Positions 137-19,777 are shown, counted from the stretch's first letter. The stretch: DNA of 23,216 nucleotides from Candidatus Margulisiibacteriota bacterium (GCA_034723395.1 JAYEOW010000055.1:1-23216), one strand, 5' to 3'. Program-made: numbers and translations. Notes: generated by a model from the sequence alone, not told the origin.

Positions 137-165
137 TTGACAATCCCCTGCCTACAATCTATAAT
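137..165 (+). promoter_or_regulatory. Consensus sigma70 promoter of the flagellar-like operon
   Basis: TTGACA (137-142), 17 nt spacer, TATAAT (160-165). ATG at 175 with no SD. Confidence 0.85.
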
Positions 166-174
166 AAAACTACG

Positions 175-912
175 ATGACCGACCGCATATTGGAGATTGG
201 CAAAGCCGGGCTGGAAAGCGCTGATCAAAAGGTCAGAAAGCTGATGGATAATATGGTCAATTCCGCAGTCCCCGGCTATAAAAAATCAGATGTTTCGGTG
301 CGGGCATTTCCCCTCGAACTCGAAGCCGCTTCCCAGCGTATTTCCGCGATGAAACCCCAGGTCGAAGGATCGTTTCATAGCAATATTCAAGGGGCCCTGA
401 TCAAGACGGGAGGTAAGCTGGACCTTGCTCTGGGGTCGGATGGATACTTTGAGATATCCGGTCCGTGGGGTGATGGGTATACTAGGGACGGGAGATTCCG
501 CTTAGATAAAGATGGCAGGCTGCTTACGGTTGCCGGCAACTATCCGGTGATCGGGAGGCACGGTCCGATAATCGTCACCCCCGGATCAGAGATAGAGTTT
601 ACCGAGACTGGTGAAATCAAGATCGATGAATCTGTTGTAGACCATATCAAAGTGGTAAATCCCGAGAACAGGGATACGCTCGAATCTTTGAACGGGAGTG
701 TTTTTAAAAAGAGCGGCGATTTTACCGTAATGATCGAAGTTGAGAATCCGCGTTTGATCCAGGGCTACATTGAAGCCTCTAATGTGAATATTATCGATTC
801 GATGATGGAGATGATCTATCTGGAAAGAATTTATAATATGAACACTAAAATAATCCAGAGCCGTGACGCGACCTTAGCCCGTTCCATGGAGCTTGGAAGG
901 CCTACCCAATAA
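175..912 (+). CDS. flgF: Flagellar basal-body rod protein, FlgF-like
   Basis: Degenerate N-terminal rod motif (DNMVNSAVPGYKK), TGGKLDLAL, YTRDGRF and C-terminal GYIEASNVN. Directly precedes flgG. Confidence 0.8.
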   Translation: MTDRILEIGKAGLESADQKVRKLMDNMVNSAVPGYKKSDVSVRAFPLELEAASQRISAMKPQVEGSFHSNIQGALIKTGGKLDLALGSDGYFEISGPWGDGYTRDGRFRLDKDGRLLTVAGNYPVIGRHGPIIVTPGSEIEFTETGEIKIDESVVDHIKVVNPENRDTLESLNGSVFKKSGDFTVMIEVENPRLIQGYIEASNVNIIDSMMEMIYLERIYNMNTKIIQSRDATLARSMELGRPTQ

Positions 913-926
913 CAAGGAGGTAACTT

Positions 927-1724
927 ATGTTTCAACCGTTATATGTAGCTGCAACCGGCCTGTCAGCAATGCAGGATGAGATCTTGGGGATTACCGATAA
1001 TTTAGCCAATGCTAAAACGGTCGGTTTTAAGAAGGGGCGGACCGAAATGGAGTCCCTTTTTTATATCGAGAAGAGCTTTAAGGACGTTTTATACGAAGCG
1101 ATGTCGGGGAACGAAACACCGCCGGTAAATGTTGAGTACGGGACCGGGGTCAGGATTGCTTCAACCCCGCGAGATTTTACCCAGGGGAGCATTGAAATAA
1201 CCAATAATCCGCTGGACGTGGCAATTAAAGGAGAGGGATTTTTTGTTTTTAAAATGCCGGATGGGACGAATACCTACGGCCGTGCGGGGAATCTCCATTT
1301 GGATAACGCGGGGAACCTGGTTGATCCCAATGGGCATCTCTTCGATCCCGAGATCGTTATCCCCGAAGGGACCACTTCGATCGTTGTCCAGCAGGATGGG
1401 ACGATCCTGGTGGCGGTCAATAATGAAAATGAATATTCTGAGATCGGGCAGATCAACCTGGCGCGCTTTACTAATCCCGCCGGGTTAAAGAGTTTGGGCC
1501 AGAATCTTTATCAGGCGAGCGATGCTTCGGGAGTGCCCTTCATCGGCATACCGGGAGAAGATGGGTTTGGCAGCATGAATCAATACGCGTTGGAGCAATC
1601 AAACGTGGACGTTATTTCTGAAATGATGCGGATGGTAACGGTGCAGAGAGTTTTTGATACGGTTACTAAGGCGGTTCAGTCGTACGAAGGTATGCTGACC
1701 AGTCTTGAGCGGATGAAACAGTAA
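927..1724 (+). CDS. flgG: Flagellar distal rod protein FlgG
   Basis: NLANAKTVGFKK, GTGVR, TNNPLDVAIKGEGFF, NPAGLKSLGQNLY, LEQSNVD. SD GGAGG upstream. Confidence 0.92.
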   Translation: MFQPLYVAATGLSAMQDEILGITDNLANAKTVGFKKGRTEMESLFYIEKSFKDVLYEAMSGNETPPVNVEYGTGVRIASTPRDFTQGSIEITNNPLDVAIKGEGFFVFKMPDGTNTYGRAGNLHLDNAGNLVDPNGHLFDPEIVIPEGTTSIVVQQDGTILVAVNNENEYSEIGQINLARFTNPAGLKSLGQNLYQASDASGVPFIGIPGEDGFGSMNQYALEQSNVDVISEMMRMVTVQRVFDTVTKAVQSYEGMLTSLERMKQ

Positions 1725-1728
1725 GCTA

Positions 1729-1763
1729 GATATGAGATATGTGAGATGTGATATGAGAAATAT
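1729..1763 (+). repeat. Heptamer tandem array at the flgA start
   Basis: GATATGA GATATGT GAGATGT GATATGA GAAATAT. Confidence 0.75.
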
Positions 1764-2463
1764 TTTATTAATCAGTTTGCTAATTGTGTTTATGACAGCT
1801 TCGTTTGCGCTGGAGAATCCGGAGCGGGAGATGACCGAGGTCATCGAGAATTATGTGCTGGAGAAATATCCGGAATGGATCGGGCTGGAGATAAAAGTAA
1901 ATTATAAATATGCGGACAAGACGTTTAATAAGCTCCGTTCCATGGGAGACAAAGTAACGCTCGAAATTCCGGAGCAATATCAAAACAGCCGTCCGGTAGG
2001 GAATGTGATCTTGCCGGTTGTTGTTAGTTCAAAAGGGTATTCAAAGAAGCTGTTTGTGCGTGCTAAAGTGGAGGTTCTCCATGATGTCGCGGTTGCAAAT
2101 AATTATATTCAACGAGGGAGCGTTATAACTGATGAGGATGTAATGATCGAGCAGCGGGATATTGCTATGGTGCCGCAAAAATTCCATTTTAAGCTGGAGG
2201 ATGTGGTAGGGAAAGAGGCCAAGACCTCGATCCCTGAAAAAAGCACGGTTTACGCATGGATGATAAAAGAGGTGCCGCAGGTCCATCGCGGCGATAAAGT
2301 GATGATCAGCATTGTCGGTACCAACCTGATGGTTAAGAGCGAGGGGACCGCGCTGGAAGACGGCTACATCGGGAAGATATTAAAAGTTAAAAGGAAAAAC
2401 GTTAAGAACCCGTTGGAAGGGATTTTAGTCTCTGCTAATGAAGTCGAGGTGGTGTTAAAATGA
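1732..2463 (+). CDS. flgA: P-ring assembly chaperone FlgA (true start may be 1753)
   Basis: Signal peptide ending ASFA, SAF-like region, C-terminal VHRGDKV...GTALEDGYIGKILKV. Lies between flgG and flgH. Confidence 0.85.
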   Translation: MRYVRCDMRNILLISLLIVFMTASFALENPEREMTEVIENYVLEKYPEWIGLEIKVNYKYADKTFNKLRSMGDKVTLEIPEQYQNSRPVGNVILPVVVSSKGYSKKLFVRAKVEVLHDVAVANNYIQRGSVITDEDVMIEQRDIAMVPQKFHFKLEDVVGKEAKTSIPEKSTVYAWMIKEVPQVHRGDKVMISIVGTNLMVKSEGTALEDGYIGKILKVKRKNVKNPLEGILVSANEVEVVLK

Positions 2464-3095
2464 AAATCCCAAATCCCAAATTCCAAATCCTAACAAGGGA
2501 AAATATTATGTTAATGACTACATTGTTGGGATTTTTGATTTTAACATTTGGATTTTCCGCGCAGGCGGACTCGGTTTGGAATAAAGATAGTGCCTCTCCC
2601 TATAGTACGCAAAAAGCGTATAAAGAAGGGGATATTATCAATATAATTATCCTCGAGAGCAGCACTGCTCAGAATAAAGCCGGCACGAGATCGGATGTCA
2701 AAGATGATCTGGGCGCGAGGTTTACCCATACTATATCGCGTTTAGCTCCGGTGATCGGGACCAACAATTCGGCAACCGGGCAATTTTCGAACAAGTATAG
2801 CGGGTTGGGACAGACTTCGCGCACCAGCAATGTACAGGCGCGGATCGCCGCCTGGGTGACCGATGTTAATCCGAACGGGAATTTGAATATCAAGGGGAGA
2901 CACCGGGTTGAAGTTAATGATGAGATTCAGGACATTATGATTACCGGGATTGTTCGGCCTAAAGATATTAGCGGGGCAAATACGATCTACTCTTATCAGG
3001 TAGCGAATGCGGAACTTTCGATCAAAGGGACCGGGGTAATTGCAGAGACCGAATCTCCCGGCTGGCTGACCCGGATCTTTAACTGGATATTTTAG
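2460..3095 (+). CDS. flgH: Flagellar L-ring protein FlgH, no lipobox Cys
   Basis: KAYKEGDIINIIILE, PNGNLNIKG, ITGIVRPKDISGANTIYSYQVANA, PGWLTRIFNWIF. Confidence 0.92.
   Translation: MKIPNPKFQILTRENIMLMTTLLGFLILTFGFSAQADSVWNKDSASPYSTQKAYKEGDIINIIILESSTAQNKAGTRSDVKDDLGARFTHTISRLAPVIGTNNSATGQFSNKYSGLGQTSRTSNVQARIAAWVTDVNPNGNLNIKGRHRVEVNDEIQDIMITGIVRPKDISGANTIYSYQVANAELSIKGTGVIAETESPGWLTRIFNWIF
2464..2555. repeat. Inverted heptamer arrays inside the flgH signal-peptide coding region
   Basis: Left arm AAATCCC AAATCCC AAATTCC AAATCCT (2464-2491). Right arm GGGATTT TTGATTT TAACATT TGGATTT (2528-2555). Confidence 0.75.
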
Positions 3096-3100
3096 GAGAA

Positions 3101-3212
3101 CAAATGACAAATAACAAGTGGCAAATGACAAATAAATCATTAAATCATAAATCAATTAAAAGATTTGGAATTTGGATTTTATTAGGATTTTGGATTTTGT
3201 CATTTGGGTTTT
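3101..3212. repeat. Inverted heptamer arrays inside the flgI signal-peptide coding region
   Basis: Left arm CAAATGA CAAATAA CAAGTGG CAAATGA CAAATAA (3101-3135). Right arm AGATTTG GAATTTG GATTTTA ... GATTTTG GATTTTG TCATTTG (3161-3206). CAAATGACAAA and TTTGTCATTTG are exact reverse complements. Confidence 0.8.
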
Positions 3213-4255
3213 CCGCGCAAGCGGCATCGCCTGCGGTCAGGATCAAAGATATCGCCAACATCTTAGAGGCGAGAGAAAACCAATTAATGGGTTTTGGCCT
3301 GGTGGTTGGATTGAGGAATACAGGGGACAAGACCCAGACCGGGTTTACCCAGCAGGCCTTAACCAATCTTTTATCGCGGATGGGGATTGTTCCGCAGACG
3401 GTCGATTTCAGGTCTAGAAATGTTGCCGCGGTTATGGTTACGGCTAATCTTCCTGCATTTATAAAACCGGGACAGAAATTGGATGTGACCGTATCTTCAG
3501 TAGGCGACGCTAATTCGCTGCAGGGTGGGACATTATTAATGACCCCGCTCTACGGCGCTGACGATAAGGTTTACGCGGTTGCGCAGGGTAGCCTTTTGGT
3601 CGGGCTGAAATCTTCTACCGCTTCCGTCCCCTATATCCGCCGCAGCCAGACGACAGTTGGCCGGATCCCGGGAGGGGCGCTGGTCGAAAAAGAGGTGCCG
3701 GTCTCGGTCGGGGACAAGGGTTTGATTACCATCGTCCTGGATAATCCGGATTTTACTACGGCCACCAGAGTTGCTGCTTCGATCAGCCGGATCGGATTAG
3801 AGGCAAAGGCGAAAGATGCCGGGACGGTAACTATCCCGGTACTCGGGGATATTATAACTACGGTTTCCAGAATAGAAAAACTCACTGTCGTCCCGGATGT
3901 AGTGGCCAAGATCGTGGTTAATGAACGGACCGGTACTATCGTTATCGGAGAGAGCGTAAAAATTGCTCCTTGCGCCGTTTCTTATTCCGGAATTGACGTT
4001 ACGATCGGGAACGTTTCGCTCTTTACCGAGGGGTCGGGCGGAGAAGCGGCCCAGGATGATTCACGCTATCGGGCGCGTTCGGTCGCGCGGTTAGATGAGG
4101 CCAAGGGCGATCTTAAACTGGTTTCGGGTGGGGCGACATTGTCGGCCTTAGTAAGGGCGCTGAACGCGATCGGGGCATCGCCGAAAGATATGATCGCGAT
4201 ACTGCAGGCGATGAAGAAAGCGGGGGCGATCAAGGCGGAGTTAGAGGTAATATAA
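3104..4255 (+). CDS. flgI: Flagellar P-ring protein FlgI
   Basis: RIKDIA, RENQLMGFGLVVGLRNTGD, RNVAAVMVTA, SLQGGTLLMTPL, VNERTGTIVIG, ILQAMKKAGAIKAELEVI. Confidence 0.96.
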   Translation: MTNNKWQMTNKSLNHKSIKRFGIWILLGFWILSFGFSAQAASPAVRIKDIANILEARENQLMGFGLVVGLRNTGDKTQTGFTQQALTNLLSRMGIVPQTVDFRSRNVAAVMVTANLPAFIKPGQKLDVTVSSVGDANSLQGGTLLMTPLYGADDKVYAVAQGSLLVGLKSSTASVPYIRRSQTTVGRIPGGALVEKEVPVSVGDKGLITIVLDNPDFTTATRVAASISRIGLEAKAKDAGTVTIPVLGDIITTVSRIEKLTVVPDVVAKIVVNERTGTIVIGESVKIAPCAVSYSGIDVTIGNVSLFTEGSGGEAAQDDSRYRARSVARLDEAKGDLKLVSGGATLSALVRALNAIGASPKDMIAILQAMKKAGAIKAELEVI

Positions 4256-4257
4256 AA

Positions 4258-4560
4258 ATGGATGGAATTCAAAGTAATATGGTCCGGATACAAGCGATGG
4301 CGGCCATGCAGAATACTGCGAATATACAGCAGCGTGAACAGGTAAAAGATGAATTTATGGCGATCTTTTATAAAGAGATGCTAAAGCAGGCTTTTAAAGG
4401 GCCGAAGTTCGGTCTCGATGAAGAGAACCCGTCCTTTATGGGGACTTATGGATCGGACATGCTGGTGGAAAAATTAGCTATGCAGCTTGCCCAGAGCAAG
4501 GCGTTTGCTGCTGGCAATATTCTTCCAAAAGTAGCAGAAAGAAATGGGATAAATGACTAA
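4258..4560 (+). CDS. flgJ: Short FlgJ-like rod-binding protein, no muramidase domain
   Basis: Follows flgI. EFMAIFYKEMLKQ and SDMLVEKLAMQLAQ resemble the FlgJ N-terminal rod-cap motifs. Confidence 0.65.
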   Translation: MDGIQSNMVRIQAMAAMQNTANIQQREQVKDEFMAIFYKEMLKQAFKGPKFGLDEENPSFMGTYGSDMLVEKLAMQLAQSKAFAAGNILPKVAERNGIND

Positions 4561-5293
4561 GACAAAAAAGCGGGCCGTTAAAAAAGTAAAAAAAATTGTT
4601 GTAAAATCGATCGAAGCGTATATGCCGCTGGTCCATTCGATCGCCTCAATGGTCTCAGGAAAGGGCCTCCCTCCAAATATTGAATACGATGACCTGGTTT
4701 CCGACGGGACCGTCGGGTTAATGAAGGCGTGGGATAATTTTGATCCCAATCGCGGAGTGAAGTTTGAAACCTATGCTTCATACCGGGTGCGGGGAGAGAT
4801 CCTTGACGGATTAAAGAATTACAGCCCGGTCCCGTATCGTGTCCAGGTGATGGTCCGTGACCTGGCGAAAAAAGGGGTAAGCTCGGTCGTTGAAAAAAAA
4901 GGGAAAGAGAAGGAAAAAGAGGTTGAGCTCGAGAAGAAAGAGCTGACCGAGAAAGAATTTAGACAGGCGATCAAGCGGATTAAAAAGATCGTTTCTGCTT
5001 CGGCGTTGATGTATCTGATGTCTTTGGAAAGGATGTCCGCGACCGGATATGAGGCGCAGGTTTCCGGAGAAACCACACCGGCAGCGGAACTTGAATTCGC
5101 CGAACTTAAGGGGAGCATTAGGGGAGCGATCGACGGATTGCCTCCGTTGCAGCGGAAAGTAGTGGAACTATTTTACCATAAGGGGATCAACCAGAAAACG
5201 ATCGCCAAGCGGTTGAAGCTTTCGCGTCCGAAAGTGTGCAGGGTGTTGGCCAAATCGATTAAAATTATAAAAGGTAAATTAAAGCGTGTCTAA
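4553..5293 (+). CDS. Divergent FliA/WhiG-like sigma70-family sigma factor
   Basis: Region 2 DDLVSDGTVGLMKAWDNFDPNRGVKFETYASYRVRGEILDGL. Region 4 AIDGLPPLQRKVVELFY...QKTIAKRLKLSRPKVCR. Confidence 0.85.
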   Translation: MTKTKKRAVKKVKKIVVKSIEAYMPLVHSIASMVSGKGLPPNIEYDDLVSDGTVGLMKAWDNFDPNRGVKFETYASYRVRGEILDGLKNYSPVPYRVQVMVRDLAKKGVSSVVEKKGKEKEKEVELEKKELTEKEFRQAIKRIKKIVSASALMYLMSLERMSATGYEAQVSGETTPAAELEFAELKGSIRGAIDGLPPLQRKVVELFYHKGINQKTIAKRLKLSRPKVCRVLAKSIKIIKGKLKRV

Positions 5294-5585
5294 ACCGTTA
5301 TTTGATCCAACCTTTGGGAACCTTGAGCGGGCAATGGAGATTGCTACCCGCCGCCAGGAAGTTATTACCAATAATATCGCGAACGCAAAAACCCCGGGTT
5401 ACGAAGCCTTGAACTTTGATGAGCAATTGATGCGGGCGACAAAGAGATTGAATAAAAAAGAGGTAGTGCTGGAGGATGAGCTTGCCGCGTTGACCGAAAA
5501 TTCGGTTGCATACTCGTCCTATGTTAAGTTATTATCATCTAAATTCAATGTTTTAAAGACGATCGCGTCCCAGGGGAGGAGGTAA
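5286..5585 (+). CDS. flgB: Proximal rod protein FlgB, short form (GTG start)
   Basis: RQEVITNNIANAKTPGY motif. Directly precedes flgC. Confidence 0.85.
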   Translation: MSKPLFDPTFGNLERAMEIATRRQEVITNNIANAKTPGYEALNFDEQLMRATKRLNKKEVVLEDELAALTENSVAYSSYVKLLSSKFNVLKTIASQGRR

Positions 5586-5591
5586 TAAGCA

Positions 5592-6029
5592 ATGGGGTTA
5601 AATCGGGCGATGGACATTAGTGTGTCGGGGATTAATGCTCAGCGGGTTACTATGGAGCTTATTTCCTCTAATATTGCCAACATCAACACCACCAGGACGG
5701 TATATGGCGGCCCATACCGCCGGCGGATACCGGTACTGGCGGAAAAAAGCGTCTCCTTTGCCGAAGAACTTTCCCGGGCGGAGCGAAGCTTGGCCAGGGG
5801 AGAAGGCGGCGTGGAAGTTTTGGATGTAGTTGAAGATTCGGCCCCTTTCCAAAAAGTGTATAAACCGGGACATCCGGATGCCGACGCCCAAGGGTTTGTG
5901 TCTCTGCCGAATGTGGATCTTTCAGAAGAGATGGTGAATATGGTTTATACCCAAAGGCTACACGAGGCGAACATCACCGCTTTTAACGCGACTAAAAAAA
6001 TGATGCAGGATACATTGCAAATACAATGA
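5592..6029 (+). CDS. flgC: Proximal rod protein FlgC
   Basis: SNIANINTTRT, GGPYRRR, YKPGHPDADAQGFVSLPNVD. Confidence 0.96.
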   Translation: MGLNRAMDISVSGINAQRVTMELISSNIANINTTRTVYGGPYRRRIPVLAEKSVSFAEELSRAERSLARGEGGVEVLDVVEDSAPFQKVYKPGHPDADAQGFVSLPNVDLSEEMVNMVYTQRLHEANITAFNATKKMMQDTLQIQ

Positions 6030-6385
6030 CCGATAAAATTGGACCAATAAGCGCGGAGATGAGATTGGCCCAGATCCTGGGAGATGACATGATCGCGCAG
6101 ACCGCCCCGGTCGCGCCGAATGTCAATCCGGGGGTAGATAAACCGGGTTTTGCGGAAGGAAGCCCGTTTGATGATATTTTAGGGAAGGCGATCCAATCGC
6201 TTAACGCCGTGAGCCGGTCCGAGAGATATGCAGATCAACTGGTAAATAAATATATCCGTGGGGAAGCCGAACTCCACGAAGTTATGGTAGCCCAATCGAA
6301 AATGAGCATCATGGTCCAGTTAGCGGTTACAACCATTAATACAGCGGTGACAACCTTTAAAGAGGTCACCCAAATGCAGATTTAA
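6026..6385 (+). CDS. fliE: Hook-basal body protein FliE
   Basis: FDDILGKAI...LHEVMVAQSK...FKEVTQMQI. Lies between flgC and fliF. Confidence 0.88.
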   Translation: MTDKIGPISAEMRLAQILGDDMIAQTAPVAPNVNPGVDKPGFAEGSPFDDILGKAIQSLNAVSRSERYADQLVNKYIRGEAELHEVMVAQSKMSIMVQLAVTTINTAVTTFKEVTQMQI

Positions 6386-6399
6386 GATAAGGAGTAGAA

Positions 6400-7845
6400 A
6401 TGGCAGAAGCAGCGCCGGCGCCGACTGGCGGCGGGTTAGATATCAGAAGATTATTACTTATGGGCGGGGTCGGAGTAGTTATCGTATTTGCCGTGATATT
6501 TCTTCTCTTTCGCGGATGCGCGGCGACCGGGGGGAGAGGTGGATCAGATTATACAGTTATTTATTCAAACCTGGGATTAAAGGATGCGGCAAATGTAGTT
6601 GCCCGGCTTAAGGAATTGGCAATTCCCTACGAGTTAAAGGACCAAGGACGATCGATCGCTGTACAGAAAAACAGATCGGACCAGGCGCGGCTCGGGCTGG
6701 CCGAAGAAAACCTGCCGGCGGGCGGGGTAGTAGGCTGGGAGATCTTTGACGAAACAAAATTAGGGGCGACCGATTTTGACCGGCGGATCCAGCTTATCCG
6801 CGCAATTTCGGGCGAGCTTTCAAGGACTATCCGCAGGATAAACGCGGTCGAAGACGCGCGGGTCCAGGTGGTTATGCCCGAAACCCGCCTTTTTGAGACC
6901 GTAAAAGCTCCAGTAACCGCTTCGGTCCTTTTAAAGTTAAGGCCGGGAGCAGAACTTATCCCGACTAAGATCCGCGGGATCGTTCACTTAGTTTCCAGCA
7001 GCGTTGAGAACCTTCAAACCGAGAATGTAACGGTTGTGGATAATAATGGAAGGATCCTAACGACGAAAACGATCTTAGAGGCCCCGGACCGTGAGCGGAT
7101 AAGTATTAAAAAGATCGTGACCACCCCTAAGGACATTATTATTACTGCCGAAGTAGAGGCGATAACCAAGGTTGCCACGGCGCCATTAAGCGCAGAAGAA
7201 AAGATCATGCTTAAAGTTAAGGCCAAGAAGAGGTTGGAGGTTGACCTGGCGGGGAAGGCGCAGGAGATCCTGAACCGTTTCTATCCGCCAAATAGTGTGA
7301 TCATAAAAGTTAATGTGGAGCTTAAGAACTCTACTGACAAAAAGAGCGCGAAATATGAGTTGAAGGTCGGGAGATTAACCGCGGTGATCTTGGTCGATAA
7401 CCGGATCGAGTTGACCCCGGAATTAAAGAGCTCTACTTATAAATCGGTCGCAGCTGCGGTCGGTTATGACAGGAAACGGGGCGATAAGATCATTATGCAA
7501 AAGGTCCCCTTCCATCTGGCGACCCCGCCTCCAGAGGTGATGAAGGCCGAAGTTCAAAAGGTGTTTCCGCCGGAAAAGAACGGTAAAAAGAGCATTGATA
7601 TTCTCCCGATATCCGGGATCAAATATCTCCCCTGGATCGGTGGAGGGGTTTTGCTCCTTTTGTTAGTTGTCTTGATCATAAAAAGGATCGGGAAAAAGAG
7701 ACCCCCCGAGAAATTAGAGATGACCGAATTTCCCGCAAAGCCGGAAGAACCGGCGAAAGGGTCGGAGGTTGACGCGATAAAATCAGCAGCGGCGAACAAT
7801 CCGGAAAAGATTGCGGAGCTGCTTAAAAGTTGGTTAACTAAATAA
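6400..7845 (+). CDS. fliF: MS-ring protein FliF with shortened RBM3 insertion
   Basis: Two TM segments, GWEIFD...GATDF, GELSRTI, ARVQVVMPE, TASVLLKL, AVGYDRKRGD, and C-terminal NPEKIAELLKSWL. Confidence 0.93.
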   Translation: MAEAAPAPTGGGLDIRRLLLMGGVGVVIVFAVIFLLFRGCAATGGRGGSDYTVIYSNLGLKDAANVVARLKELAIPYELKDQGRSIAVQKNRSDQARLGLAEENLPAGGVVGWEIFDETKLGATDFDRRIQLIRAISGELSRTIRRINAVEDARVQVVMPETRLFETVKAPVTASVLLKLRPGAELIPTKIRGIVHLVSSSVENLQTENVTVVDNNGRILTTKTILEAPDRERISIKKIVTTPKDIIITAEVEAITKVATAPLSAEEKIMLKVKAKKRLEVDLAGKAQEILNRFYPPNSVIIKVNVELKNSTDKKSAKYELKVGRLTAVILVDNRIELTPELKSSTYKSVAAAVGYDRKRGDKIIMQKVPFHLATPPPEVMKAEVQKVFPPEKNGKKSIDILPISGIKYLPWIGGGVLLLLLVVLIIKRIGKKRPPEKLEMTEFPAKPEEPAKGSEVDAIKSAAANNPEKIAELLKSWLTK

Positions 7846-7846
7846 A

Positions 7847-8311
7847 ATGCCTTTGAGCGGAAGAGAAAAAGCGACAATATTTTTATCTATCCTGGGGGCG
7901 GATACCTCAGCCAGAGTCCTTCGCTATCTGCCGGATGAACTAGCCGATCTGATCGCGGCAGGGATCAATCACCTTCCGACGCCTTCATCCGAAGCGCTTT
8001 CAGAGGTTTTGGGCGAATTCAAAGGTTTTCTGGCGCTGCCCGGGGAAAAGTCTCCGCCGAAAAGGATCGAAGAGCGGCCGGCTCCTCCTCAACCGAAAAG
8101 GTCGTATGCTATTTTAAAATACGAAAGGCCGCAGCTGGCGGCATTTTTGGTATCGATGCTTCCGGCCGAAGAGAAGGAAGATGTGCTGGCGGGTATTCCC
8201 CGCGAGCGGGGGATGGTGGAAGAATTTTTAGCTAATATCAAAAAGAACTCCTTATCGCCAAAATTAGAAGCGGTATTGAGGGAGCAATATAAAGGGAAAT
8301 TATGGGACTAA
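7847..8311 (+). CDS. fliG: Half-length FliG-like protein (N domain and part of M domain, no C-terminal torque domain)
   Basis: LSGREKATIFLSILG matches the FliG N-terminal motif. ERPQLAAFLVSML matches the EHPQ motif. Lies between fliF and fliH. 154 aa. Confidence 0.8.
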   Translation: MPLSGREKATIFLSILGADTSARVLRYLPDELADLIAAGINHLPTPSSEALSEVLGEFKGFLALPGEKSPPKRIEERPAPPQPKRSYAILKYERPQLAAFLVSMLPAEEKEDVLAGIPRERGMVEEFLANIKKNSLSPKLEAVLREQYKGKLWD

Positions 8312-8991
8312 TCAAAAGGGACCTTATTGAAGAGAAAGGGACATTGCTGATAGAAAAGAAGGCACCGGTACTTCCGCCGAGGCCGAAGGTCGAAATGGCG
8401 CCGCAGAGACCGGCTTCTGAAACAGAGATTAAAAAATCAAAAAACGAGGCACAGGAGATAATTGAGGCGGCGAGGCAAGAGGCAGCAGACATTAAGGAGG
8501 AAGCAAAGGAGGCGGGGAGACAGGAGGGGAGACAGGAAGCCTCTTCAAGAATAGAAGAGGCGATGGAGACGTTGAATGCGGCGGTAAAAGAGCGAAAAAA
8601 AATAATCTCCGATTCCGAGAATGAGATTTTAAGACTCTCTTTGAAAGTAGCTGAGCAGATAATCCGTTCCGAAGTTTCGCTCCATCGCGATGTTTGCCTT
8701 AATATTGTTTCTGAAGCTATTTCGAGAGTATCCGATCGGGAACAGATAATCGTAAAGGTAAACCGTGAAGATGCTGAATATTTAAAGCGGTATAAGGACC
8801 GCCTGGCCGGGATGCTTGATGGAGTGAAAAGTTTTTCGATCATTGAAGATGCCAATATTGAACCAGGTGGATGTGTTATCGAGACCAACCTCGGTTTTAT
8901 CGACGCCCGTATCGCAACAAAAATAAAATCTATCGAAGAAGCCCTCAACAAAGTGAGTTCCAGTAAAGAAGAAAAAAATCCCGCGCAATGA
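8302..8991 (+). CDS. fliH: Export ATPase regulator FliH/SctL
   Basis: AxxxG repeats ([13 protein letters not shown]), [25 protein letters not shown]. Confidence 0.92.
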
Positions 8992-10298
8992 AAATTGATT
9001 TTGAAGAATACCATAGAGCGGTAGATAAGGCCGAACTGGTAAAAGTTATCGGCAAGGTTGTCCAGGTTGTCGGTTTGATCATAGAAGCCCAGGTTGGCGG
9101 GGTTTCTGTCGGGGATCTATGCACCATACGGATCGAAAAAGATAATCGTGATGCCCAGGCCGAAGTGGTCGGCTTTCGCGAAAACCGTGTCCTCTTAATG
9201 CCCCTCGGTTCTACCTCTGGGATATCCCCGGGATCCCAGGTTACCGCAGCAGGAAGACCTTTGATGGTTCCTGTTGGCAAAGACCTTTTAGGTAGGGTAT
9301 TGGGAGGATTGGGGGAGCCGATCGATGGTAAAGGGCCGCTTACCGGTGAAGAAAAATATCCGCTGGACGCGGATCCTCCCGATCCGGTTAAAAGACCGCG
9401 CGTTACCGAAGTTCTCCGCGCAGGTATTCGCGCGATCGATGGGACGCTAACCGTTGGCAGGGGGCAGAGAATCGGGATCTTTGCCGGTTCCGGTGTAGGG
9501 AAGTCTACTTTAATGGGCATGCTTGCCAGAAACACCGAAGCAGATGTCAACGTGATCGCGTTGGTCGGTGAGCGCGGCAGGGAGGTGCGCGATTTTATTG
9601 AAGAATCGCTGGGAGAAGAAGGTTTAAAGAGGTCGGTAGTTATTGTCGCGACTTCCGACAAGCCCCCTCTGATCCGCCTGAAAGCGGCCTTTGTCGCCAC
9701 CGCGGTCGCCGAATATTTTCGTAATAAAGGGAAGAAAGTTGTCTTGATGATGGATTCGGTGACCCGTTTTGCCATGGCCCAGCGTGAGATCGGCCTGGCA
9801 GCGGGGGAACCACCGACAACAAAAGGATATACTCCATCTGTTTTTGCGTTACTTCCCAGGTTGATGGAGAGGTCGGGGACGTCGGAAACCGGGACGATCA
9901 CCGCTTTTTATACGATCCTGGTCGAAGGGGATGATTTTAATGAACCGATTGCCGACCACTCGCGCTCTATTCTGGACGGGCACATTGTGCTCACCAGGTC
10001 GCTGGCGGCGCGCAACCACTATCCGGCGATCGATGTCCCGCACAGCGTATCCCGATTGATGACTAACCTGGTCTCCGATGAGCATAAGAAATCGGCGGGG
10101 CAATTAAGAGAAGTTTTGGCCCGTTATGCCGAAGCGGAGGACCTGATCAACATCGGCGCCTACGTAAAGGGAAGCAATCCGAAGATCGATTACGCTTTGT
10201 CAAAGATCGATCAGGTGAACGGGTTCTTAAAGCAGGGGACCTTTGAAAAGGTCAACTTTGAAGATACGGTCAACCAGATCATAGGGATATTTATATAG
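8988..10298 (+). CDS. fliI: Export ATPase FliI/SctN
   Basis: Walker [52 protein letters not shown]. Confidence 0.97.
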
Positions 10299-10789
10299 TG
10301 GCGAAGCCAAAACCGGGCAAGAAATTCAAGTATGACCTCACGCCTGTCCTGAAGGTAAGGGCGATCAAAGAGAAAAAAGAACAGGAAAAATTTGCCGAAA
10401 AGAAACGCTCTTACATGACCGAAAAGAAAAAGGAAGATGAGATTGATGAAAATAAAAAGGGTAAAGAGGGGGAGCTGCGCGGAGTTTTTAAAAAAGGGCC
10501 AATTTCTGATTTTTCCAAAGTTTTGCAGAGAAAAGCACATCTCGAAGTGTTAAAAGACGACCTTGATAAACAGATCGAAAAGGTGATCGAGTCAAGTAAG
10601 CTTTTAGAAGAGCAGCGCGCCCACCTGATCACCGCGATGAAGGATAAGAAGGTTATGGAAAAGCACAAAGAGAAAAAACTTGAAGAGTATAAGAAGATCA
10701 TGAACGACCTGGAGACCAAATTCTTAGACGAGATCGCTACTGAGAGATTCCAAACTGAAAAACACGACCAGAAGAAGAAAAAGAGCTAG
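10298..10789 (+). CDS. fliJ: FliJ/SctO-like coiled-coil stalk protein (GTG start)
   Basis: [12 protein letters not shown] at the N-terminus, charged coiled coil, [11 protein letters not shown] near the C-terminus. Follows fliI. Confidence 0.85.
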
Positions 10790-10977
10790 ACTGCTTTTAT
10801 CGCTTTCCCGGCCTTAAGGCACTTGGTGCAGACATAATCTTTTATCTTTTTCCCCTCGAAAATGATGTTCATCTTCTGCAGGTTGGGATTGAAGCGCCGT
10901 TTGCTGTGGCGGTTGCTGTGGGATACAGTATTGCCGCTTCTTGGCTTTTTACCGCAGTAAACACATTTCTTGCTCAT
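10786..10977 (-). CDS. rpmB: 50S ribosomal protein L28 (63 aa, zinc-ribbon type)
   Basis: [35 protein letters not shown]...CTKCLKAG. True start is 10977, not 11076. Confidence 0.96.
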
Positions 10978-10981
10978 AGCG

Positions 10982-11010
10982 TTTATAGTATAGCATGATT
11001 GTGTTAGAAT
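10982..11010 (+). promoter_or_regulatory. Possible promoter of the recG operon
   Basis: TGtTAGAAT (11002-11010) extended -10, with weak -35 TTTATA (10982-10987) at 17 nt spacing. Confidence 0.45.
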
Positions 11011-11015
11011 GACAA
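10987..11015 (-). promoter_or_regulatory. sigma70 promoter of rpmB
   Basis: Minus strand TTGTCA, 17 nt spacer, TATACT, with an extended -10 TG. ATG is 9 nt downstream of the -10. Confidence 0.75.
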
Positions 11016-11024
11016 ACAGTAAAC

Positions 11025-12971
11025 ATGACGACAAAACTAGACACACCAGCTCAATATATAAAAGGGGTCGGCCCAAAGGTGGCTAAACTGCTTAAAAAAC
11101 TTGGCTTGGAAACGGCTGAGGATATAATATATTTTTTCCCGCGCGATTATGATGACCGTTCAACCGTTAAAGCGATCGCGCAGCTTTCTCCGTCAGCACA
11201 TGAAGTGGTAAAAGGGGAGATCATATCGATCAATAACCAGCAGACGCGCGGCCGGTTTTCGGTACTAAAAATAGTTGTTTCCGACCGCTCGGGATCGGTG
11301 CAGGCGGTCTGGTTTAACCAGCCTTATCTGGCCAGAATGTTCCGAAAGGGGATGCGGTTGATCCTTTCCGGTAAAGTGGAGATCTCAAATTATGAGGGGA
11401 TCATGCAATTTATCGTTAAGGATTTTGAGATAGATACGGGGGTAAACCCGAAGATCGTCCCTTTTTATCCTTTAACCGAAGGGCTTTATCCAAAAAAGAT
11501 GCGGGCAATAGTTGAGCGGGCGCTGGATGAATGTTTGGATGAGATCGAAGATACGGTCCCAGAAGAGGTAAAGAAGAAATATAAGCTTCCCGATCTTCAA
11601 AAATCGATCCATCAGCTCCATTTTCCGGACGACCTGAAAAAAATAGCAATAGCTCACCGGCGTCTCGCTTTTGATGATTTCTATAATTTTTTCATAGAGC
11701 TTGGCCGGCGCAGGAAAAAGATTAAAGCAGAAAAAGGTGTCAAGTTTAAAGTTGATGAGGCAAGGATCAGAGAATTTAAGAATTCTCTCCCGTTTAAATT
11801 GACCGGTTCGCAGGAGCGGGTATTAAACGATATTTTTACGGATATGCAAAGTGATCGGCCGATGAACCGGCTTTTACAGGGAGATGTCGGTTCGGGTAAA
11901 ACGATTGTGGCGGCGATCGCCGCTTTGGCAGCGGTTAATGATGGTTATCAAGTAGCCTTTATGGCGCCGACCGAGATTTTGGCGCAGCAGCATTATGCGA
12001 AAATAGCAAATTATCTTGACGAATTTAAAGTTTCGGTCGAGCTAGTGACATCCAACACATTGGGAAAAGGAAGGGAGCAGAAGGCGGATATTATTATCGG
12101 GACCCACGCCCTTATCCAGGAAAAAGTTAAATACAAAAACCTTGGTTTAGTGATTATCGACGAGCAGCACCGCTTTGGAGTAATGCAAAGGAAAACGCTT
12201 GCGCAAAAAGGGATGAGCCCCGGCCTTCTGATCATGACCGCGACCCCGATCCCAAGATCGCTTGCCTTAACCCTTTATGGAGATCTCGACCGTTCAGTTA
12301 TCGGCGAAATGCCGCCGGGGAGGACTCCGATCAAGACCCATTATGTGCCAGAGGGTAAACGGAGCGGCGCTTACAGTTTTATGCGTGAAAAGGTGAAAGA
12401 GGGGCGGCAAATATTTATTATCTGCCCCCTGGTGGAGGAATCTGAAAAAGTGGACCTTAAGGCGGCCATGGATGAAGCGGAAAGGTTGCAAAATGATATT
12501 TTTCCCGACCTAAAAGTCGGGCTTATTCACGGACGTTTGCCCGGCGATGAGAAAGACAGGATCATGAAGGATTTTAAGAATAAAAAGATCGATATCCTGG
12601 TATCTACGACGGTGATCGAGGTCGGGATTGATATCCCGAACGCAACTGTTATGGTTATAGAGCACGCGGAAAGGTTTGGCCTTTCACAGCTCCACCAATT
12701 ACGGGGAAGGATCGGACGCGGTTCTGAGCAGTCATTTTGTTTCTTGATCGGCCAGCCAAAAACTGAGGATGCAAGGATTAGGATCAGGGCGATGCTCGAT
12801 TCTAATGACGGATTTGATATTGCCGAAGTCGATTTAAAATTGCGCGGACCGGGCGACTTTTTCGGCACTAAACAGAGCGGATTGCCTGAGTTTAAAGTGG
12901 CTGATATTATAAGAGATGCGCAGGTTTTGCGTGAAGCTCGACAGGCAGTCATTGATCAGGGTAAATTATGA
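11025..12971 (+). CDS. recG: ATP-dependent DNA helicase RecG
   Basis: KGVGPK, wedge domain [67 protein letters not shown]. Confidence 0.97.
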
Positions 12972-15263: not shown

Positions 15264-15983
15264 ATGAAAGGCGTAATCTTGGCGGGAGGCACGGGTTCCC
15301 GCTTATATCCGTTAACTAAAGTAACTAATAAGCATCTCCTTCCAGTGGGGAGAAAGCCGATGATCTTCCATACGATCGATAAGATGACCGAGATGGGGAT
15401 AAAAGAGATCCTGATCGTGACCGGAGTGGACCATATGGGTGATATTGTCACTCTTTTGGGGAGCGGGAAAGATTTTAACTGCAAATTTACTTATAAGGTC
15501 CAGGATGAGGCGGGGGGGATTGCCCAGGCCTTAGGCCTGGCTGAGAATTTTGTTGGAAAAGAGCAGATGGTGGTTATTTTGGGAGATAATATTTTCGAAG
15601 ACAACTTGAGCCAGTTTGCGGAAGCGTTTGAGAGGCAGAAGAAGGGGGCAAAAGTTCTGGTTAAAGAGGTTTCTGATCCGCAGCGGTTTGGTGTTGTCGA
15701 AATGGATAAGGGGAAGATCGTTTCGATCGAAGAGAAACCGAAGAAACCAAAGAGCAATTTTGTAATAACCGGAATTTATTTTTACGACCATGAAGTGTTT
15801 GATATTATTCGCGGATTAAAACCCTCGGCGCGCGGAGAATTTGAAGTTTCCGATGTGAACCGCGCTTATCTGAAGAGGGGTAAGCTTACTTATGATATAT
15901 TGAGCGGCTGGTGGACCGATGCGGGGACCTTTGAATCGTTAGAGCGGGCAACATTAATGGCAGAGGGGAAGATCCAGCTGTGA
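15264..15983 (+). CDS. Sugar-1-phosphate nucleotidyltransferase (short RmlA/SpsI-type glucose-1-phosphate thymidylyltransferase)
   Basis: KGVILAGGTGSRLYPLT, LGDNIF, EEKP, PSARGEFEVSDVN, WTDAGT. SD AAGGAG. Confidence 0.9.
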   Translation: MKGVILAGGTGSRLYPLTKVTNKHLLPVGRKPMIFHTIDKMTEMGIKEILIVTGVDHMGDIVTLLGSGKDFNCKFTYKVQDEAGGIAQALGLAENFVGKEQMVVILGDNIFEDNLSQFAEAFERQKKGAKVLVKEVSDPQRFGVVEMDKGKIVSIEEKPKKPKSNFVITGIYFYDHEVFDIIRGLKPSARGEFEVSDVNRAYLKRGKLTYDILSGWWTDAGTFESLERATLMAEGKIQL

Positions 15984-16993
15984 AGCTATTAGTTACCGGC
16001 GGTGCTGGGTTTATCGGCAGCAATTTTATCCGCTTTATCTTAAACAAATATCCCGAAGACCACGTTATTAACTTTGATAAGCTGACCTATGCGGGGAATC
16101 TCGATAATTTAAAAGACATCGAAGATAATGTTCGCTATAAATTTTATAAAGGGGACATTAGTGACCCGATCGCGGTTGAAAAAGCGATCGGCCTTTTTGA
16201 TCAAGTAGATGCGATCGTTAATTTTGCGGCGGAGAGCCATGTTGACCGATCGATCCTTTCGGCGGGGGCATTTGTCCAGACCGATGTATATGGCACTTAC
16301 ATCCTCCTTGAAGCGGTAAAGAAACATAAGATCAAAAAATATCTCCATATTTCGACCGATGAGGTCTATGGCAGCATTGAAAAAGGTTCGTTCACTGAAG
16401 AATCGAACCTATCTCCAAATTCTCCTTATGCCGCCTCCAAAGCGGGAGGGGACCTGATCGTGCGGTCTTATTTTAAAACTCACGGCCTGCCAGTTGTTAT
16501 CACGCGTTCATCAAATAATTATGGGCCCTATCAATATCCGGAGAAAGTAATGCCGTTATTTATTACTAATCTTATTCAGGGTAAAAAAATTCCCCTCTAT
16601 GGCGACGGTAAGAATGTCCGCGACTGGCTGTATGTGGATGATAATTGTGCGGGGGTAGATACTGTTTTGCGCAAGGGGAAGATCGGGGAAATTTATAATA
16701 TCGGGGGAGAGAGCGAAAGGCAGAATATCGTGATCACTAAGATGATCTTAAAAGAGCTGGGGAAGGGCGAAGAGATGATCGAGCCGGTAAAGGATCGGCC
16801 GGGGCACGATCGCCGGTATTCAATTGATTGTTCAAAGACCAAAAAACTTGGCTGGAAGCCTAAAATGGCTTTTGAGGATGGGATGAAGAAGACGATCGAG
16901 TGGTATAAGGAGCATCGGGAGTGGTGGGAGAAGATAAAAGAGAAAGAGAAAGATTTTCAAAAGTTTTATAACGAATGGTATGCTAAGAGATAG
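15980..16993 (+). CDS. rfbB: dTDP-glucose 4,6-dehydratase (GTG start)
   Basis: VTGGAGFIGSNF, DKLTYAGN, AAESHVDRSI, STDEVYG, SPYAASKA, DRPGHDRRY. Confidence 0.96.
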   Translation: MKLLVTGGAGFIGSNFIRFILNKYPEDHVINFDKLTYAGNLDNLKDIEDNVRYKFYKGDISDPIAVEKAIGLFDQVDAIVNFAAESHVDRSILSAGAFVQTDVYGTYILLEAVKKHKIKKYLHISTDEVYGSIEKGSFTEESNLSPNSPYAASKAGGDLIVRSYFKTHGLPVVITRSSNNYGPYQYPEKVMPLFITNLIQGKKIPLYGDGKNVRDWLYVDDNCAGVDTVLRKGKIGEIYNIGGESERQNIVITKMILKELGKGEEMIEPVKDRPGHDRRYSIDCSKTKKLGWKPKMAFEDGMKKTIEWYKEHREWWEKIKEKEKDFQKFYNEWYAKR

Positions 16994-17016
16994 CCTTAAC
17001 CCAAGAGATAAGAAGG

Positions 17017-17226
17017 CAGCCCTCATCCAATTATTTCTTTAACCAATACTTTTTTTTCAGCAACCTTCTCCCAGTCCCTCGACAGAGCTCGGGACAAGTG
17101 GGAGAAGGACTGATAAATTATCGAAAACATTACTATTTTGTAAACATTAACTAGCCACTCCCTCTCCCTCTGGGAGAGGGAAGCTCAAGATAAGCCGAAC
17201 ATTTGGAATAACCAGGGTGAGGGCTG
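17017..17226. repeat. Composite palindromic element (MITE/REP-like)
   Basis: Outer inverted repeats CAGCCCTCATCC (17017-17028) and GGGTGAGGGCTG (17215-17226), 11/12 match. Hairpin CCTTCTCCCA/TGGGAGAAGG (17064-17108). Hairpin TCCCTCTCCC/GGGAGAGGGA (17159-17181). Confidence 0.75.
17074..17098 (+). repeat. REP-like hairpin, copy 2, nested in a hairpin loop
   Basis: GTCCCTCGACAGAGCTCGGGACAAG. Confidence 0.8.
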
Positions 17227-17245
17227 TAATCTTCCCCTATTGTAC

Positions 17246-17274
17246 TTGACAAAATTAGCCCATGGTTATATAAT
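17246..17274 (+). promoter_or_regulatory. Consensus sigma70 promoter of the glycan locus
   Basis: TTGACA (17246-17251), 17 nt spacer, TATAAT (17269-17274). Confidence 0.85.
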
Positions 17275-17301
17275 GTTCATTGATTGAACAATAAGTGAAC
17301 A
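17274..17301. promoter_or_regulatory. Putative operator overlapping the transcription start
   Basis: TGTTCA-N5-TGAACA (17274-17290), plus a further TGAACA at 17296-17301. Confidence 0.65.
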
Positions 17302-17307
17302 TTAACC

Positions 17308-17811
17308 ATGGTTAATGAAAACGAACTAAAAGTTATCGAAGAGATCTCCCGCGAAAAGGGGCTTACCCAAAGGGATCTTTCCAAAAAAACACAACTTTCC
17401 CTGGGTGCGGTAAATGTTATCCTCAAACGGCTGGTTAAGCGCGGAATCCTAAAAGCTGCTGATTATTCGGTTACCCCAAAAGGATTTGCCGCAAAGGCAA
17501 AGCACTCATATAACTATATCCTTAAAACGGTCAGTCTAGTTAAACTGGTAAAGGGAGAGATCGGGAAAATCGTCCTTGAGGAGTACAATCGAGGGCAAAA
17601 AAAATTCGTAATTTTGGGGGACGATGATCTGGCGGACATTATCGAGTTGGCGTTAAAGGGATTTGATTACAAGCGGGTTACGAGCGTTAAAGCAATTGAG
17701 GATAAAAGCGCTCTGGTTTTATTGAGTGATAAATCCTCAAAATCCAACGGTTTCCGTGCTTTGAATATTGCCGAGAGATTAGGGGAATCTTACTGGGGAG
17801 TAGATTTGTAA
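17308..17811 (+). CDS. Winged-HTH (MarR-like, polysaccharide-locus-associated) transcriptional regulator
   Basis: TQRDLSKKTQLSLGAVNVILKRLVKRG...YSVTPKG, followed by a small Rossmann-like C-terminal segment (FVILGDDDLA). Confidence 0.82.
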   Translation: MVNENELKVIEEISREKGLTQRDLSKKTQLSLGAVNVILKRLVKRGILKAADYSVTPKGFAAKAKHSYNYILKTVSLVKLVKGEIGKIVLEEYNRGQKKFVILGDDDLADIIELALKGFDYKRVTSVKAIEDKSALVLLSDKSSKSNGFRALNIAERLGESYWGVDL

Positions 17812-17813
17812 TT

Positions 17814-18536: not shown

Positions 18537-18785
18537 TGGAACAAAGTGTAACTAAAAGAACAGCTAAGAATTTTTCCTGGCTGCTGGTCGGCAGCGGCTT
18601 TTGGCTTACTCTAAAATGCACAGGTATTTTTATTGACTCATAATATGTTTGTCGGATCAGACAGGTTTATGCAATTGATAATCAGCAATACAGTGCTTGT
18701 GGCGGTTGCGGGAATATTAATTATTTTATTTGAATTTAATTATATTTCAGAATTTGTCAAGGAGATTATAAGAAAAAATGGTTAA
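18536..18785 (+). pseudogene. Internally deleted Wzx-type flippase remnant
   Basis: 5' frame MEQSVTKRTAKNFSWLLVG (stop at 18641-18643) matches the N-termini of both intact flippases. A second frame (18615-18785) ends ...ILIILFEFNYISEFVKEIIRKNG*, resembling their C-termini. Confidence 0.8.
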
Positions 18786-19776: not shown

Positions 19777-19777
19777 T

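Follow-up and report, generated by a model that had tools for sequence, protein, structure and literature searches.

The window analysed here is an entire 23.2-kb contig (C55) from the draft genome of an uncultured Candidatus Margulisiibacteriota bacterium (Margulisbacteria/WOR-1; GCA_034723395.1, JAYEOW010000055.1:1-23216). The genome, labelled G000, comprises 1.68 Mb in 55 contigs and is 97% complete; labels from G001 onwards denote the genomes of relatives. Positions 175-10789 of the window hold a 15-gene flagellar operon. In the reading that we favour, this operon and a second one on contig C46 would together build a non-rotating, filament-less, hook-basal-body-like machine that is derived from the flagellum, is found across the phylum and exports late substrates. 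We call this machine System B and the canonical flagellum of the same phylum System A. System B is most likely an export or envelope machine and not a device for swimming, export or attachment being its presumed role.

The 15 open reading frames (ORFs) of the window operon all run in the same direction with intergenic spacings of -10 to +14 nucleotides (nt), in the order flgF-flgG-flgA-flgH-flgI-(flgJ-like)-sigma-flgB-flgC-fliE-fliF-miniFliG-fliH-fliI-fliJ. Flagellar Pfam families were matched by 13 of the 15, and one more ORF contains sigma-70 regions 2 and 4. The end of fliJ shares 4 nt with the convergent rpmB gene (10786-11076, minus strand). These spacings bear out an earlier note, made from the window by itself, which had described one coupled operon of 15 genes stopping at fliJ against rpmB. 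The features are as follows (lengths in amino acids, aa).

137..165, plus strand: sigma-70-type promoter (TTGACA, 17 nt, TATAAT), found by pattern search, its 3' end 9 nt before the flgF ATG
175..912, plus strand: flgF-like proximal rod protein, 245 aa (Pfam Flg_bbr_C and FlgE/F/G D1; best NCBIfam match TIGR02490 flgF, below cut-off)
927..1724, plus strand: flgG, distal rod protein, 265 aa (TIGR02488 flgG, 275.3 against a cut-off of 252.75; Pfam)
1732..2463, plus strand: flgA, P-ring assembly chaperone, 243 aa (Pfam ChapFlgA, E 2e-24)
2460..3095, plus strand: flgH, L-ring protein, 211 aa (Pfam FlgH, E 3.7e-45)
3104..4255, plus strand: flgI, P-ring protein, 383 aa as called (Pfam FlgI, E 1.6e-111)
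4258..4560, plus strand: orf100, conserved 100-aa ORF at the flgJ position (no Pfam or NCBIfam match for the window copy)
4553..5293, plus strand: FliA/WhiG-like sigma factor, 246 aa (sigma-70 regions 2 and 4)
5286..5585, plus strand: flgB, short proximal rod protein, 99 aa (TIGR01396 FlgB, 59.9 against a cut-off of 59.05)
5592..6029, plus strand: flgC, rod protein, 145 aa (Pfam Flg_bb_rod and Flg_bbr_C)
6026..6385, plus strand: fliE, 119 aa (Pfam FliE, E 2.3e-13)
6400..7845, plus strand: fliF, MS-ring protein, 481 aa (Pfam YscJ_FliF and partial YscJ_FliF_C; TIGR00206 fliF above cut-off)
7847..8311, plus strand: mini-FliG, 154 aa (Pfam FliG_N and FliG_M only)
8302..8991, plus strand: fliH, 229 aa (Pfam FliH, E 9.3e-22)
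8988..10298, plus strand: fliI, export ATPase, 436 aa (TIGR03497 FliI_clade2 equivalog, 666.2 against a cut-off of 629.8)
10298..10789, plus strand: fliJ, 163 aa, final gene of the operon (Pfam FliJ)

The second operon encodes FliK (243 aa), a protein resembling FlgE and FlgG (271 aa), FliM (440 aa), FliN (96 aa), FliO, FliP, FliQ, FliR, FlhB and FlhA. Over both contigs the export gate and ATPase complex (FlhA, FlhB, FliPQR and FliHIJ) is complete in G000, and the MS ring, the rod and the P and L rings are present too. The autocleavage site of FlhB, NPTH, is found in G000 and 10 of 11 relatives. By its gene content the machine is predicted to keep a C-ring or sorting platform as well as a length-control and switch module. 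The earlier note had listed no hook, filament, stator or FliM/N gene in the window, and Pfam searches agree; fliM, fliN and the flgE-like gene lie on C46 instead. The export gate that it had looked to as support is the fliOPQR and flhBA of the same contig. Its proposed whole-genome inventory came out mixed: flhAB and fliPQR were found and motAB, fliC, fliD, flgD and che were not, but fliM, fliN, fliK and a flgE-like gene do exist elsewhere in the genome.

The missing parts were sought with Pfam in an order-level set of G000 and 30 relatives, which come from two families of one order and include 16 genomes at least 90% complete. FlhA and Flg_bb_rod were each detected in 30 of the 31 genomes, mini-FliG in 28 and FliMN_C in 27. 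FliG_C was found in none of the 31, G000 included. Flagellin_N was matched once in the order and not in G000; the sole match is an orphan 251-aa ORF with an N-terminal domain only, beside an OLD-family nuclease (G019, L007:1408-2163). MotA_ExbB was likewise matched once, by G000's own ExbB beside ExbD, TonB and NikR, and no MotA/ExbB/TolQ-family protein was detected in any of the 30 relatives. The ExbB-ExbD-TonB cluster next to nikR (contig C10, L014:488-2386) may be a recent acquisition or bin contamination. Searches of G000 with MotB_plug, CheW, FlgD, FliD_C, FlgM, FliS and FlgN returned no matches, and no FlgK-type protein was seen, because Flg_bbr_C is restricted in G000 to the FlgF, FlgG and FlgC of the window. 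Neither a hook cap, a hook-filament junction, flagellin, a filament cap, a late-substrate chaperone nor a chemotaxis gene was thus found in G000. The same searches recover these parts in the genomes of the phylum that carry two systems (below). The full-length fliG, motAB and flagellin that the earlier note had thought might lie outside the window were not found in G000, and the failure to find motor and filament genes, which it had named as support, extends to the order, with the flagellin fragment of G019 as the lone exception.

The mini-FliG protein consists of the initial part of FliG_N, a disordered linker and the middle ARM (armadillo) domain of FliG, in which ERPQ replaces EHPQ. Its score with the FliG model TIGR00207 was 34.6 (cut-off 226.7), and it does not have all three FliG domains. 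A profile of 36 members of the family searched against the PDB gave ten matches, all of them FliG chains: residues 2-79 aligned with residues 5-81 of Thermotoga maritima FliG_N, which was co-crystallised with the FliF C terminus, and the ERPQ motif, in the segment around residue 92, aligned with the EHPQ of Salmonella FliG. The C-terminal tail of the window's FliF is presumably of the FliG-binding type. An AlphaFold model of mini-FliG had a mean predicted local distance difference test score (pLDDT) of 73.8, with four helices in residues 5-61 and five in residues 88-147 (pLDDT 85-90) on either side of a linker, 62-78, with pLDDT below 50. In Foldseek the FliG_N part fitted 5TDY (5tdy_D) at 1.7 Å over 63 columns, and the middle domain fitted FliG in FliM complexes (4QRM, 3SOH and 4FQ0) at 1.7-2.2 Å over 59-73 columns, the fit to 4qrm_D being 1.7 Å over 65 columns; the top matches were FliG, but whole-chain E-values were weak, 1e-3 at best. 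Conservation is highest over the N-terminal 64 residues. Among 427 candidates, 259 homologues were retrieved at E ≤ 0.001; the 120 listed are all 147-168 aa long and, where a source is named, come from Candidatus Margulisbacteria or candidate division WOR-1. No homologue of 271-2000 aa was found at E ≤ 0.001, which for this type of search is weak evidence. An apparently natural FliF-miniFliG fusion in G030 (a 643-aa open frame) was discarded as an artefact, since the frame crosses a stretch of N. On alignment and model together, mini-FliG is predicted to be a FliG of which the FliF-binding and FliM-binding parts remain and the torque domain is gone. We infer that it acts as a static adaptor from the FliF ring to FliM/FliN.

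A phylum-level set of 146 genomes showed how widely the machine occurs. FlhA was matched in 135 and FlgI in 136 of them, and mini-FliG-like matches (E ≤ 0.01) were obtained in 83, mostly in frames of 150-250 aa. Canonical-strength FliG_C (E 1e-38 to 1e-44; frames of 335-344 aa) was confined to 13 genomes, G088-G100, which also account for 13 of the 15 genomes with flagellin. These 13 belong to a class other than that of the window, and each has at least two FlhA matches (two or three) and two FlgI matches along with its canonical FliG and flagellin. In a few other drafts a second FlhA or FlgI match comes from a gene fragment or from a gene divided between contigs. Flagellin and MotB_plug were each found in all five of the two-system genomes tested.

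The two machines can be told apart in G100, a genome of 3.3 Mb that is 100% complete. Its System A lies on one contig (locus L055) and comprises flgB, flgC, fliF, a 333-aa fliG with N, M and C domains, fliH, fliI, fliJ, fliK, flgD, flgE (656 aa, with a D2 domain), fliL, fliN, fliOPQR and flhBA. A second contig carries flgF-flgG-flgA-flgH-flgI-orf-sigma-orf-flgC-fliE-fliF-(181-aa mini-FliG)-fliH-fliI-fliJ, which is the order of the window, and a third carries fliQ-fliR-flhB-flhA. Similarly, G089 encodes a 175-aa protein between FliF and FliH besides a 342-aa FliG. The mini-FliG profile had no match in G096, G088, G099 or G090. The proteins of G000 were closer to System B than to System A of G100 in six of seven comparisons, FlgC being the exception. 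Identities between G000 and G100 were as follows.

FlhA: System B 65%, System A 43%
FliI: System B 71%, System A 63%
FliH: System B 44%, System A 29%
FliF: System B 32%, System A 28%
FlgC: System B 42%, System A 43%

Overall, the FlhA proteins of Systems A and B are 41-43% identical, and those of System B are 63-78% identical across classes. Coexistence with a complete canonical flagellum in 13 genomes therefore marks System B, as judged from these genomes, as a distinct second machine found across the phylum and not a remodelling of the cell's only flagellum.

Gene order and gene lengths of the window operon are held in 20 of 20 relatives from two families, two of which are cut at flgF by contig ends, and the order of the C46 operon is held in 11 of 11. 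The ratio of nonsynonymous to synonymous substitution rates (dN/dS) was 0.01-0.41 over all 15 genes (Nei-Gojobori, six within-genus pairs, dS 0.3-2.4); two FlgF values for L067 were disregarded as cross-matches to FlgG. For mini-FliG the six pairs gave 0.08-0.16. In a wider comparison, synonymous sites were saturated in 210 of 351 mini-FliG pairs; the least saturated pairs gave 0.08-0.12, and the two least diverged 0.10 and 0.08. All 15 genes are under purifying selection. The relaxed selection that the earlier note had named as a sign of simple decay was not seen, and frameshifts were not seen in the ORFs of the relatives, apart from an internal TAA in flgI of G004 and a short fliF in L061. 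Because of the conserved order and these dN/dS values, the operon is not decaying. The earlier note's remodelled basal body thus stands as to its export gate, the failure to find motor and filament, and purifying selection, but the machine is a second, phylum-wide system and not a lineage-specific remodelling, and its secretion or attachment role is a presumption.

The origin of System B was addressed with a tree of FlhA. To this end 80 named FlhA/SctV loci were gathered from other phyla, and the tree was built from 55 of 106 rows, namely 11 System B, 5 System A, 12 SctV and 27 other flagellar sequences; L162, which gave no frame, was dropped. The tree (IQ-TREE, LG+C20+F+G4 with posterior mean site frequencies, quick search) is unrooted. 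SctV, System B and System A each formed a group with a Shimodaira-Hasegawa-like approximate likelihood-ratio support of 100, and all 12 SctV rows were confirmed as SctV by NCBIfam. System A was placed among ordinary flagellar FlhAs. A branch with support 96 separated all 32 canonical rows from the rest, and System B lay between the canonical FlhAs and the SctV clade. Its FlhA scored 770.8 with the NCBIfam FlhA model (cut-off 772.1) and 661 with the SctV/hrcV model TIGR01399 (cut-off 692.25). A single clade of Systems A and B was not rejected by the approximately unbiased test (log-likelihood difference 8.5, p 0.32), so System B may instead have arisen by within-phylum duplication followed by fast divergence, and long-branch attraction in this tree is a live concern. 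The phylogenetic comparison with flagella and injectisomes that the earlier note had put forward therefore divides: System B falls outside both reference groups, yet a joint clade with System A is compatible with the data. That System B represents a third ancient type III lineage, neither canonical flagellum nor injectisome, would agree with its place in the tree and is, in our judgement, unlikely. If true, System B would be a living relative of the proposed stage at the origin of injectisomes, at which the motility genes were lost and the rod, the P and L rings and a FliG stub retained.

The proposed machine would be assembled as follows. FliF and the export gate would assemble in the inner membrane, and mini-FliG would hang the FliM/FliN platform and the FliHIJ ATPase beneath the FliF ring. 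Rod proteins, the FlgE-like protein and a cap probably of the FlgJ type would then leave by the type III gate and cross the P and L rings, after which FliK and FlhB would switch export specificity to late substrates. These would exit by a channel without a known cap, to the medium or the cell surface. The FliA-like sigma factor encoded in the operon probably controls genes tied to the machine. Because conserved consensus sigma-70 promoters precede both operons, this factor probably serves other genes, and the same promoters suggest constitutive expression of the operons themselves.

Several points weigh against this proposal. All of the genomes are uncultured metagenome bins, and the relatives are not independent samples. 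The absences come from Pfam searches of draft genomes, which divergent filament or stator proteins could escape. FlgD is needed for the polymerisation of canonical hooks; it was not found in G000, so any structure beyond the outer membrane is hypothetical. The analysis turned up no substrate, no secretion signal, no chaperone and no expression data, and no RNA run contains the locus. A scan of G000 with a sigma-28 consensus gave only chance-level matches: of nine strict matches, eight lie inside long ORFs and the other where rplO ends, ahead of secY.

A flagellum that does serve motility, with a filament, a stator and a torque interface diverged beyond the reach of the Pfam models, would accommodate this dependence on profile searches of drafts, and most basal-body parts, FliM, FliN, FliK and a gene in the hook position are indeed present. 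Nevertheless, the torque domain is missing at the level of the gene, with no room for it between fliF, the 154-aa gene and fliH, and FliG_C was found in none of the 31 genomes; no protein of the MotA/ExbB/TolQ family was detected in the 30 relatives; FlgD, a FlgK-type protein, FliD, FliS, FlgN and CheW were not found; and the two-system genomes show that the same searches detect these parts readily. We consider a motility flagellum very improbable. Still less credible is a functionless remnant, in the course of decay, of a flagellum that was lost. Flagellar decay usually begins with the loss of motor and filament genes, and these genomes are small (1.1-1.9 Mb), but selection and synteny already contradict such a remnant: order and lengths are conserved in every relative compared over the two families, frames are intact save for the G004 and L061 cases, dN/dS is low, FlhA and FlgI persist in most of the phylum, and System B is kept beside a complete flagellum in 13 genomes. 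A structural role is harder to dismiss, although we judge it rather unlikely. Here System B would be a static envelope-spanning anchor, an attachment organelle or a short appendage, and type III export would serve only to build it. The retention of a full rod, of P and L rings and of a length-control protein suits such a structure, as does the lack of any cargo, chaperone or effector-like gene with either operon (20 and 11 relatives). On the other hand, a FliK/FlhB switch (NPTH in 11 of 12) and a dedicated sigma factor would be costly if nothing succeeded the export of rod and hook, and the operons come without an adhesin or tip protein.

Among known systems, the hook-basal bodies of Buchnera aphidicola, as portrayed in PMC8109811, keep the basal body and type III export genes and have no filament; PMC3459982 cites Maezawa 2006 and Toft & Fares 2008 for the same case. 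System B resembles them in having basal-body and export genes without flagellin or stator, in cells taken to be non-swimming, and in that an export role is proposed and the substrate is not known in either. However, the Buchnera structure is the reduced remnant of the only flagellum of an obligate endosymbiont, whereas System B is phylum-wide in environmental bacteria and stands beside a canonical flagellum in 13 genomes. System B also appears to differ in its FliG trimmed to the N and M parts and in the sigma factor within its operon.

Injectisomes (non-flagellar type III secretion systems) and an 'intermediate' form in Myxococcales are treated by Abby & Rocha 2012 (PMC3459982), which uses FliE, FlgB and FlgC as flagellum-specific markers. 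System B is like an injectisome in being a flagellar export core exapted after loss of motility genes, in lacking FliG_C and MotAB and in keeping a FliN/SctQ-type platform. Unlike an injectisome, it keeps FliE, FlgB, FlgC, FlgF, FlgG, the P and L rings and a remnant of FliG, and its gate is of the FlhA type (770.8 bits against 661 for SctV) and falls outside the SctV clade (support 100). System A of G100 shares its operon backbones (flgB-flgC-...-fliF-fliG-fliH-fliI-fliJ and fliK-...-flgE-...-fliN-fliOPQR-flhBA), with homologous proteins throughout; System A has, and System B is without, a full FliG, FlgD, a 656-aa FlgE with D2, FliL, flagellins and MotB.

A different reuse of flagellar parts was seen among the weaker FliG_C matches, which occur in 51 other genomes of the phylum and of which three were inspected. 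G047 (L190:3729-4781, 350 aa) and G063 (L191:3316-4413, 365 aa) encode orphan three-domain FliG-like proteins, outside flagellar operons and in genomes without flagellin; these could be System B partners in those classes. In G125, of the window's class, a 493-aa fusion of FliF_C (RBM3), FliG_M and FliG_C (L192:2359-3840) lies beside a MotA_ExbB-family gene and genes for tetratricopeptide repeat proteins. Its sequence context marks this as a putative non-flagellar rotor-stator module, in a genome without a canonical FliG. It is the inverse of System B, for it keeps FliG_C and a stator and is without export gate, rod and rings. Searches with FliG_C and MotA_ExbB found neither orphan FliG-like proteins nor FliF-FliG fusion modules in the window's order. 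An assignment of the 350-510-aa FliG_C matches to MgtE proved wrong for all three that were inspected. More generally, genomes with "half a motor" are counted in PMC12199754.

The literature searched on Margulisbacteria/WOR-1 with flagella or type III secretion, on Termititenax and on non-motile FliG contained no description of System B, and the main text (supplements aside) of the principal genomics paper on these lineages is silent on flagella, motility, secretion and pili. To our knowledge, one monophyletic case of flagellar exaptation for non-motility work is known, the injectisomes, and others are suspected in reduced symbionts such as Buchnera. System B would add an independent case in a far better state of preservation, a complete basal body under strong selection in uncultured bacteria that live freely. 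Its FliG has lost exactly the torque half, and simple decay is ruled out by the retention of System B in some lineages beside a flagellum that works. For studies of the anchoring of a C-ring or sorting platform, mini-FliG would offer a natural minimal FliG, a FliF adaptor joined to a FliM adaptor. In the sister phylum of Cyanobacteria, System B is a candidate for a new route of secretion as well, and its FlhA, should the deep placement hold, would open a window on the origin of injectisomes.

The sigma-70-type promoter lies close to the left edge of the window, where contig C55 ends at base 1, so that there is no sequence 5' of the window. The same -35/-10 pair was seen by eye 5' of flgF in most of the 18 relatives displayed; in four to five of these rows the sequence ends inside or before the -10 element, or the -10 deviates from TATAAT. 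In most relatives with the promoter displayed whole, the spacing from -10 to the flgF start is much alike. Because the start codon is only 9 nt past the -10 element, the flgF mRNA is probably leaderless or nearly so.

Among the ring proteins, FlgH is a lipoprotein in model bacteria. The signal peptide of the window's FlgH ends in FGFSAQA (2460-2610) and has no lipobox cysteine, and the signal-peptide tail of FlgI (3104-3230) is the same. The 5' codons of flgI traverse copies of an AATGAC repeat (at 3103 and 3124, in the stretch 3095-3230), so the true start may lie further downstream than called. Over codons 1-41, flgI as called shares 73% identity with the beginning of a 434-aa ORF on contig C4 (L015:5085-6389, minus strand) to which it is unrelated. 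That ORF, linked to FlgI by phmmer, was rejected as a relative, the likeness being confined to the 41-aa N-terminal leader; the common stretch looks like the repeat followed by a shared signal peptide.

The orf100 gene is kept in 20 of 20 relatives with dN/dS of 0.13-0.35. Three of 22 members of its family matched the Rod-binding family PF10135 (best E 7e-4), and a profile of the family gave nothing meaningful against the PDB. Its position and these matches suggest that orf100 is probably a single-domain rod-binding (rod-cap) protein of the FlgJ type. It overlaps the sigma-factor gene, and an alternative assignment as a FlgM-type anti-sigma factor was set aside in view of the absence of FlgM Pfam matches from G000, the weak Rod-binding matches and the flgJ position. 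The best NCBIfam match of the sigma factor itself was TIGR02479 FliA_WhiG (135.6 bits, below the cut-off of 189.6); its dN/dS is 0.02-0.10, and it occupies the same position in the System B operon of G100.

The earlier note had counted FliG, FliF, FlgB and FlgJ as reduced. This holds for FliG, which is 154 aa long without FliG_C, and for FlgB, whose 99 aa cover only positions 1-56 of the 131-position FlgB model. The FlgJ counterpart is only weakly FlgJ-like, and FliF, which has two hydrophobic segments, is 481 aa long, within the 481-541 aa of 19 of 20 relatives and against 528 aa in a canonical system; the outlier, 263 aa in L061, is probably cut. FliI retains its catalytic motifs, as that note had stated, with Walker A at residue 167 and Walker B near residue 251, and has dN/dS of 0.01-0.06.

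On C46, FliM (L012:14063-15385) has a C-terminal tail of about 110 residues that are almost wholly Glu and Asp. Its N terminus is without a recognisable CheY-binding peptide motif, in keeping with the failure to find chemotaxis genes. G000 alone has, in the interval from the Mur ligase gene to fliK, a gene for a 23S-rRNA-intervening-sequence protein and a 138-aa ORF (L012:17273-18135); most of the 11 relatives have by appearance a tRNA gene in this interval. Both genes were rejected as parts of the machine, being absent in 11 of 11 relatives.

Outside the operon the window contains recG, housekeeping genes and a polysaccharide cluster. This nucleotide-sugar/polysaccharide cluster (15264-23200) encodes a nucleoside triphosphate (NTP) transferase, a dehydratase, two Wzx-type flippases and two family 2 glycosyltransferases (GT2). 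Its G+C content drops to 0.37-0.41, against 0.45-0.51 in the flagellar operon, and the region looks like a variable surface-polysaccharide island.

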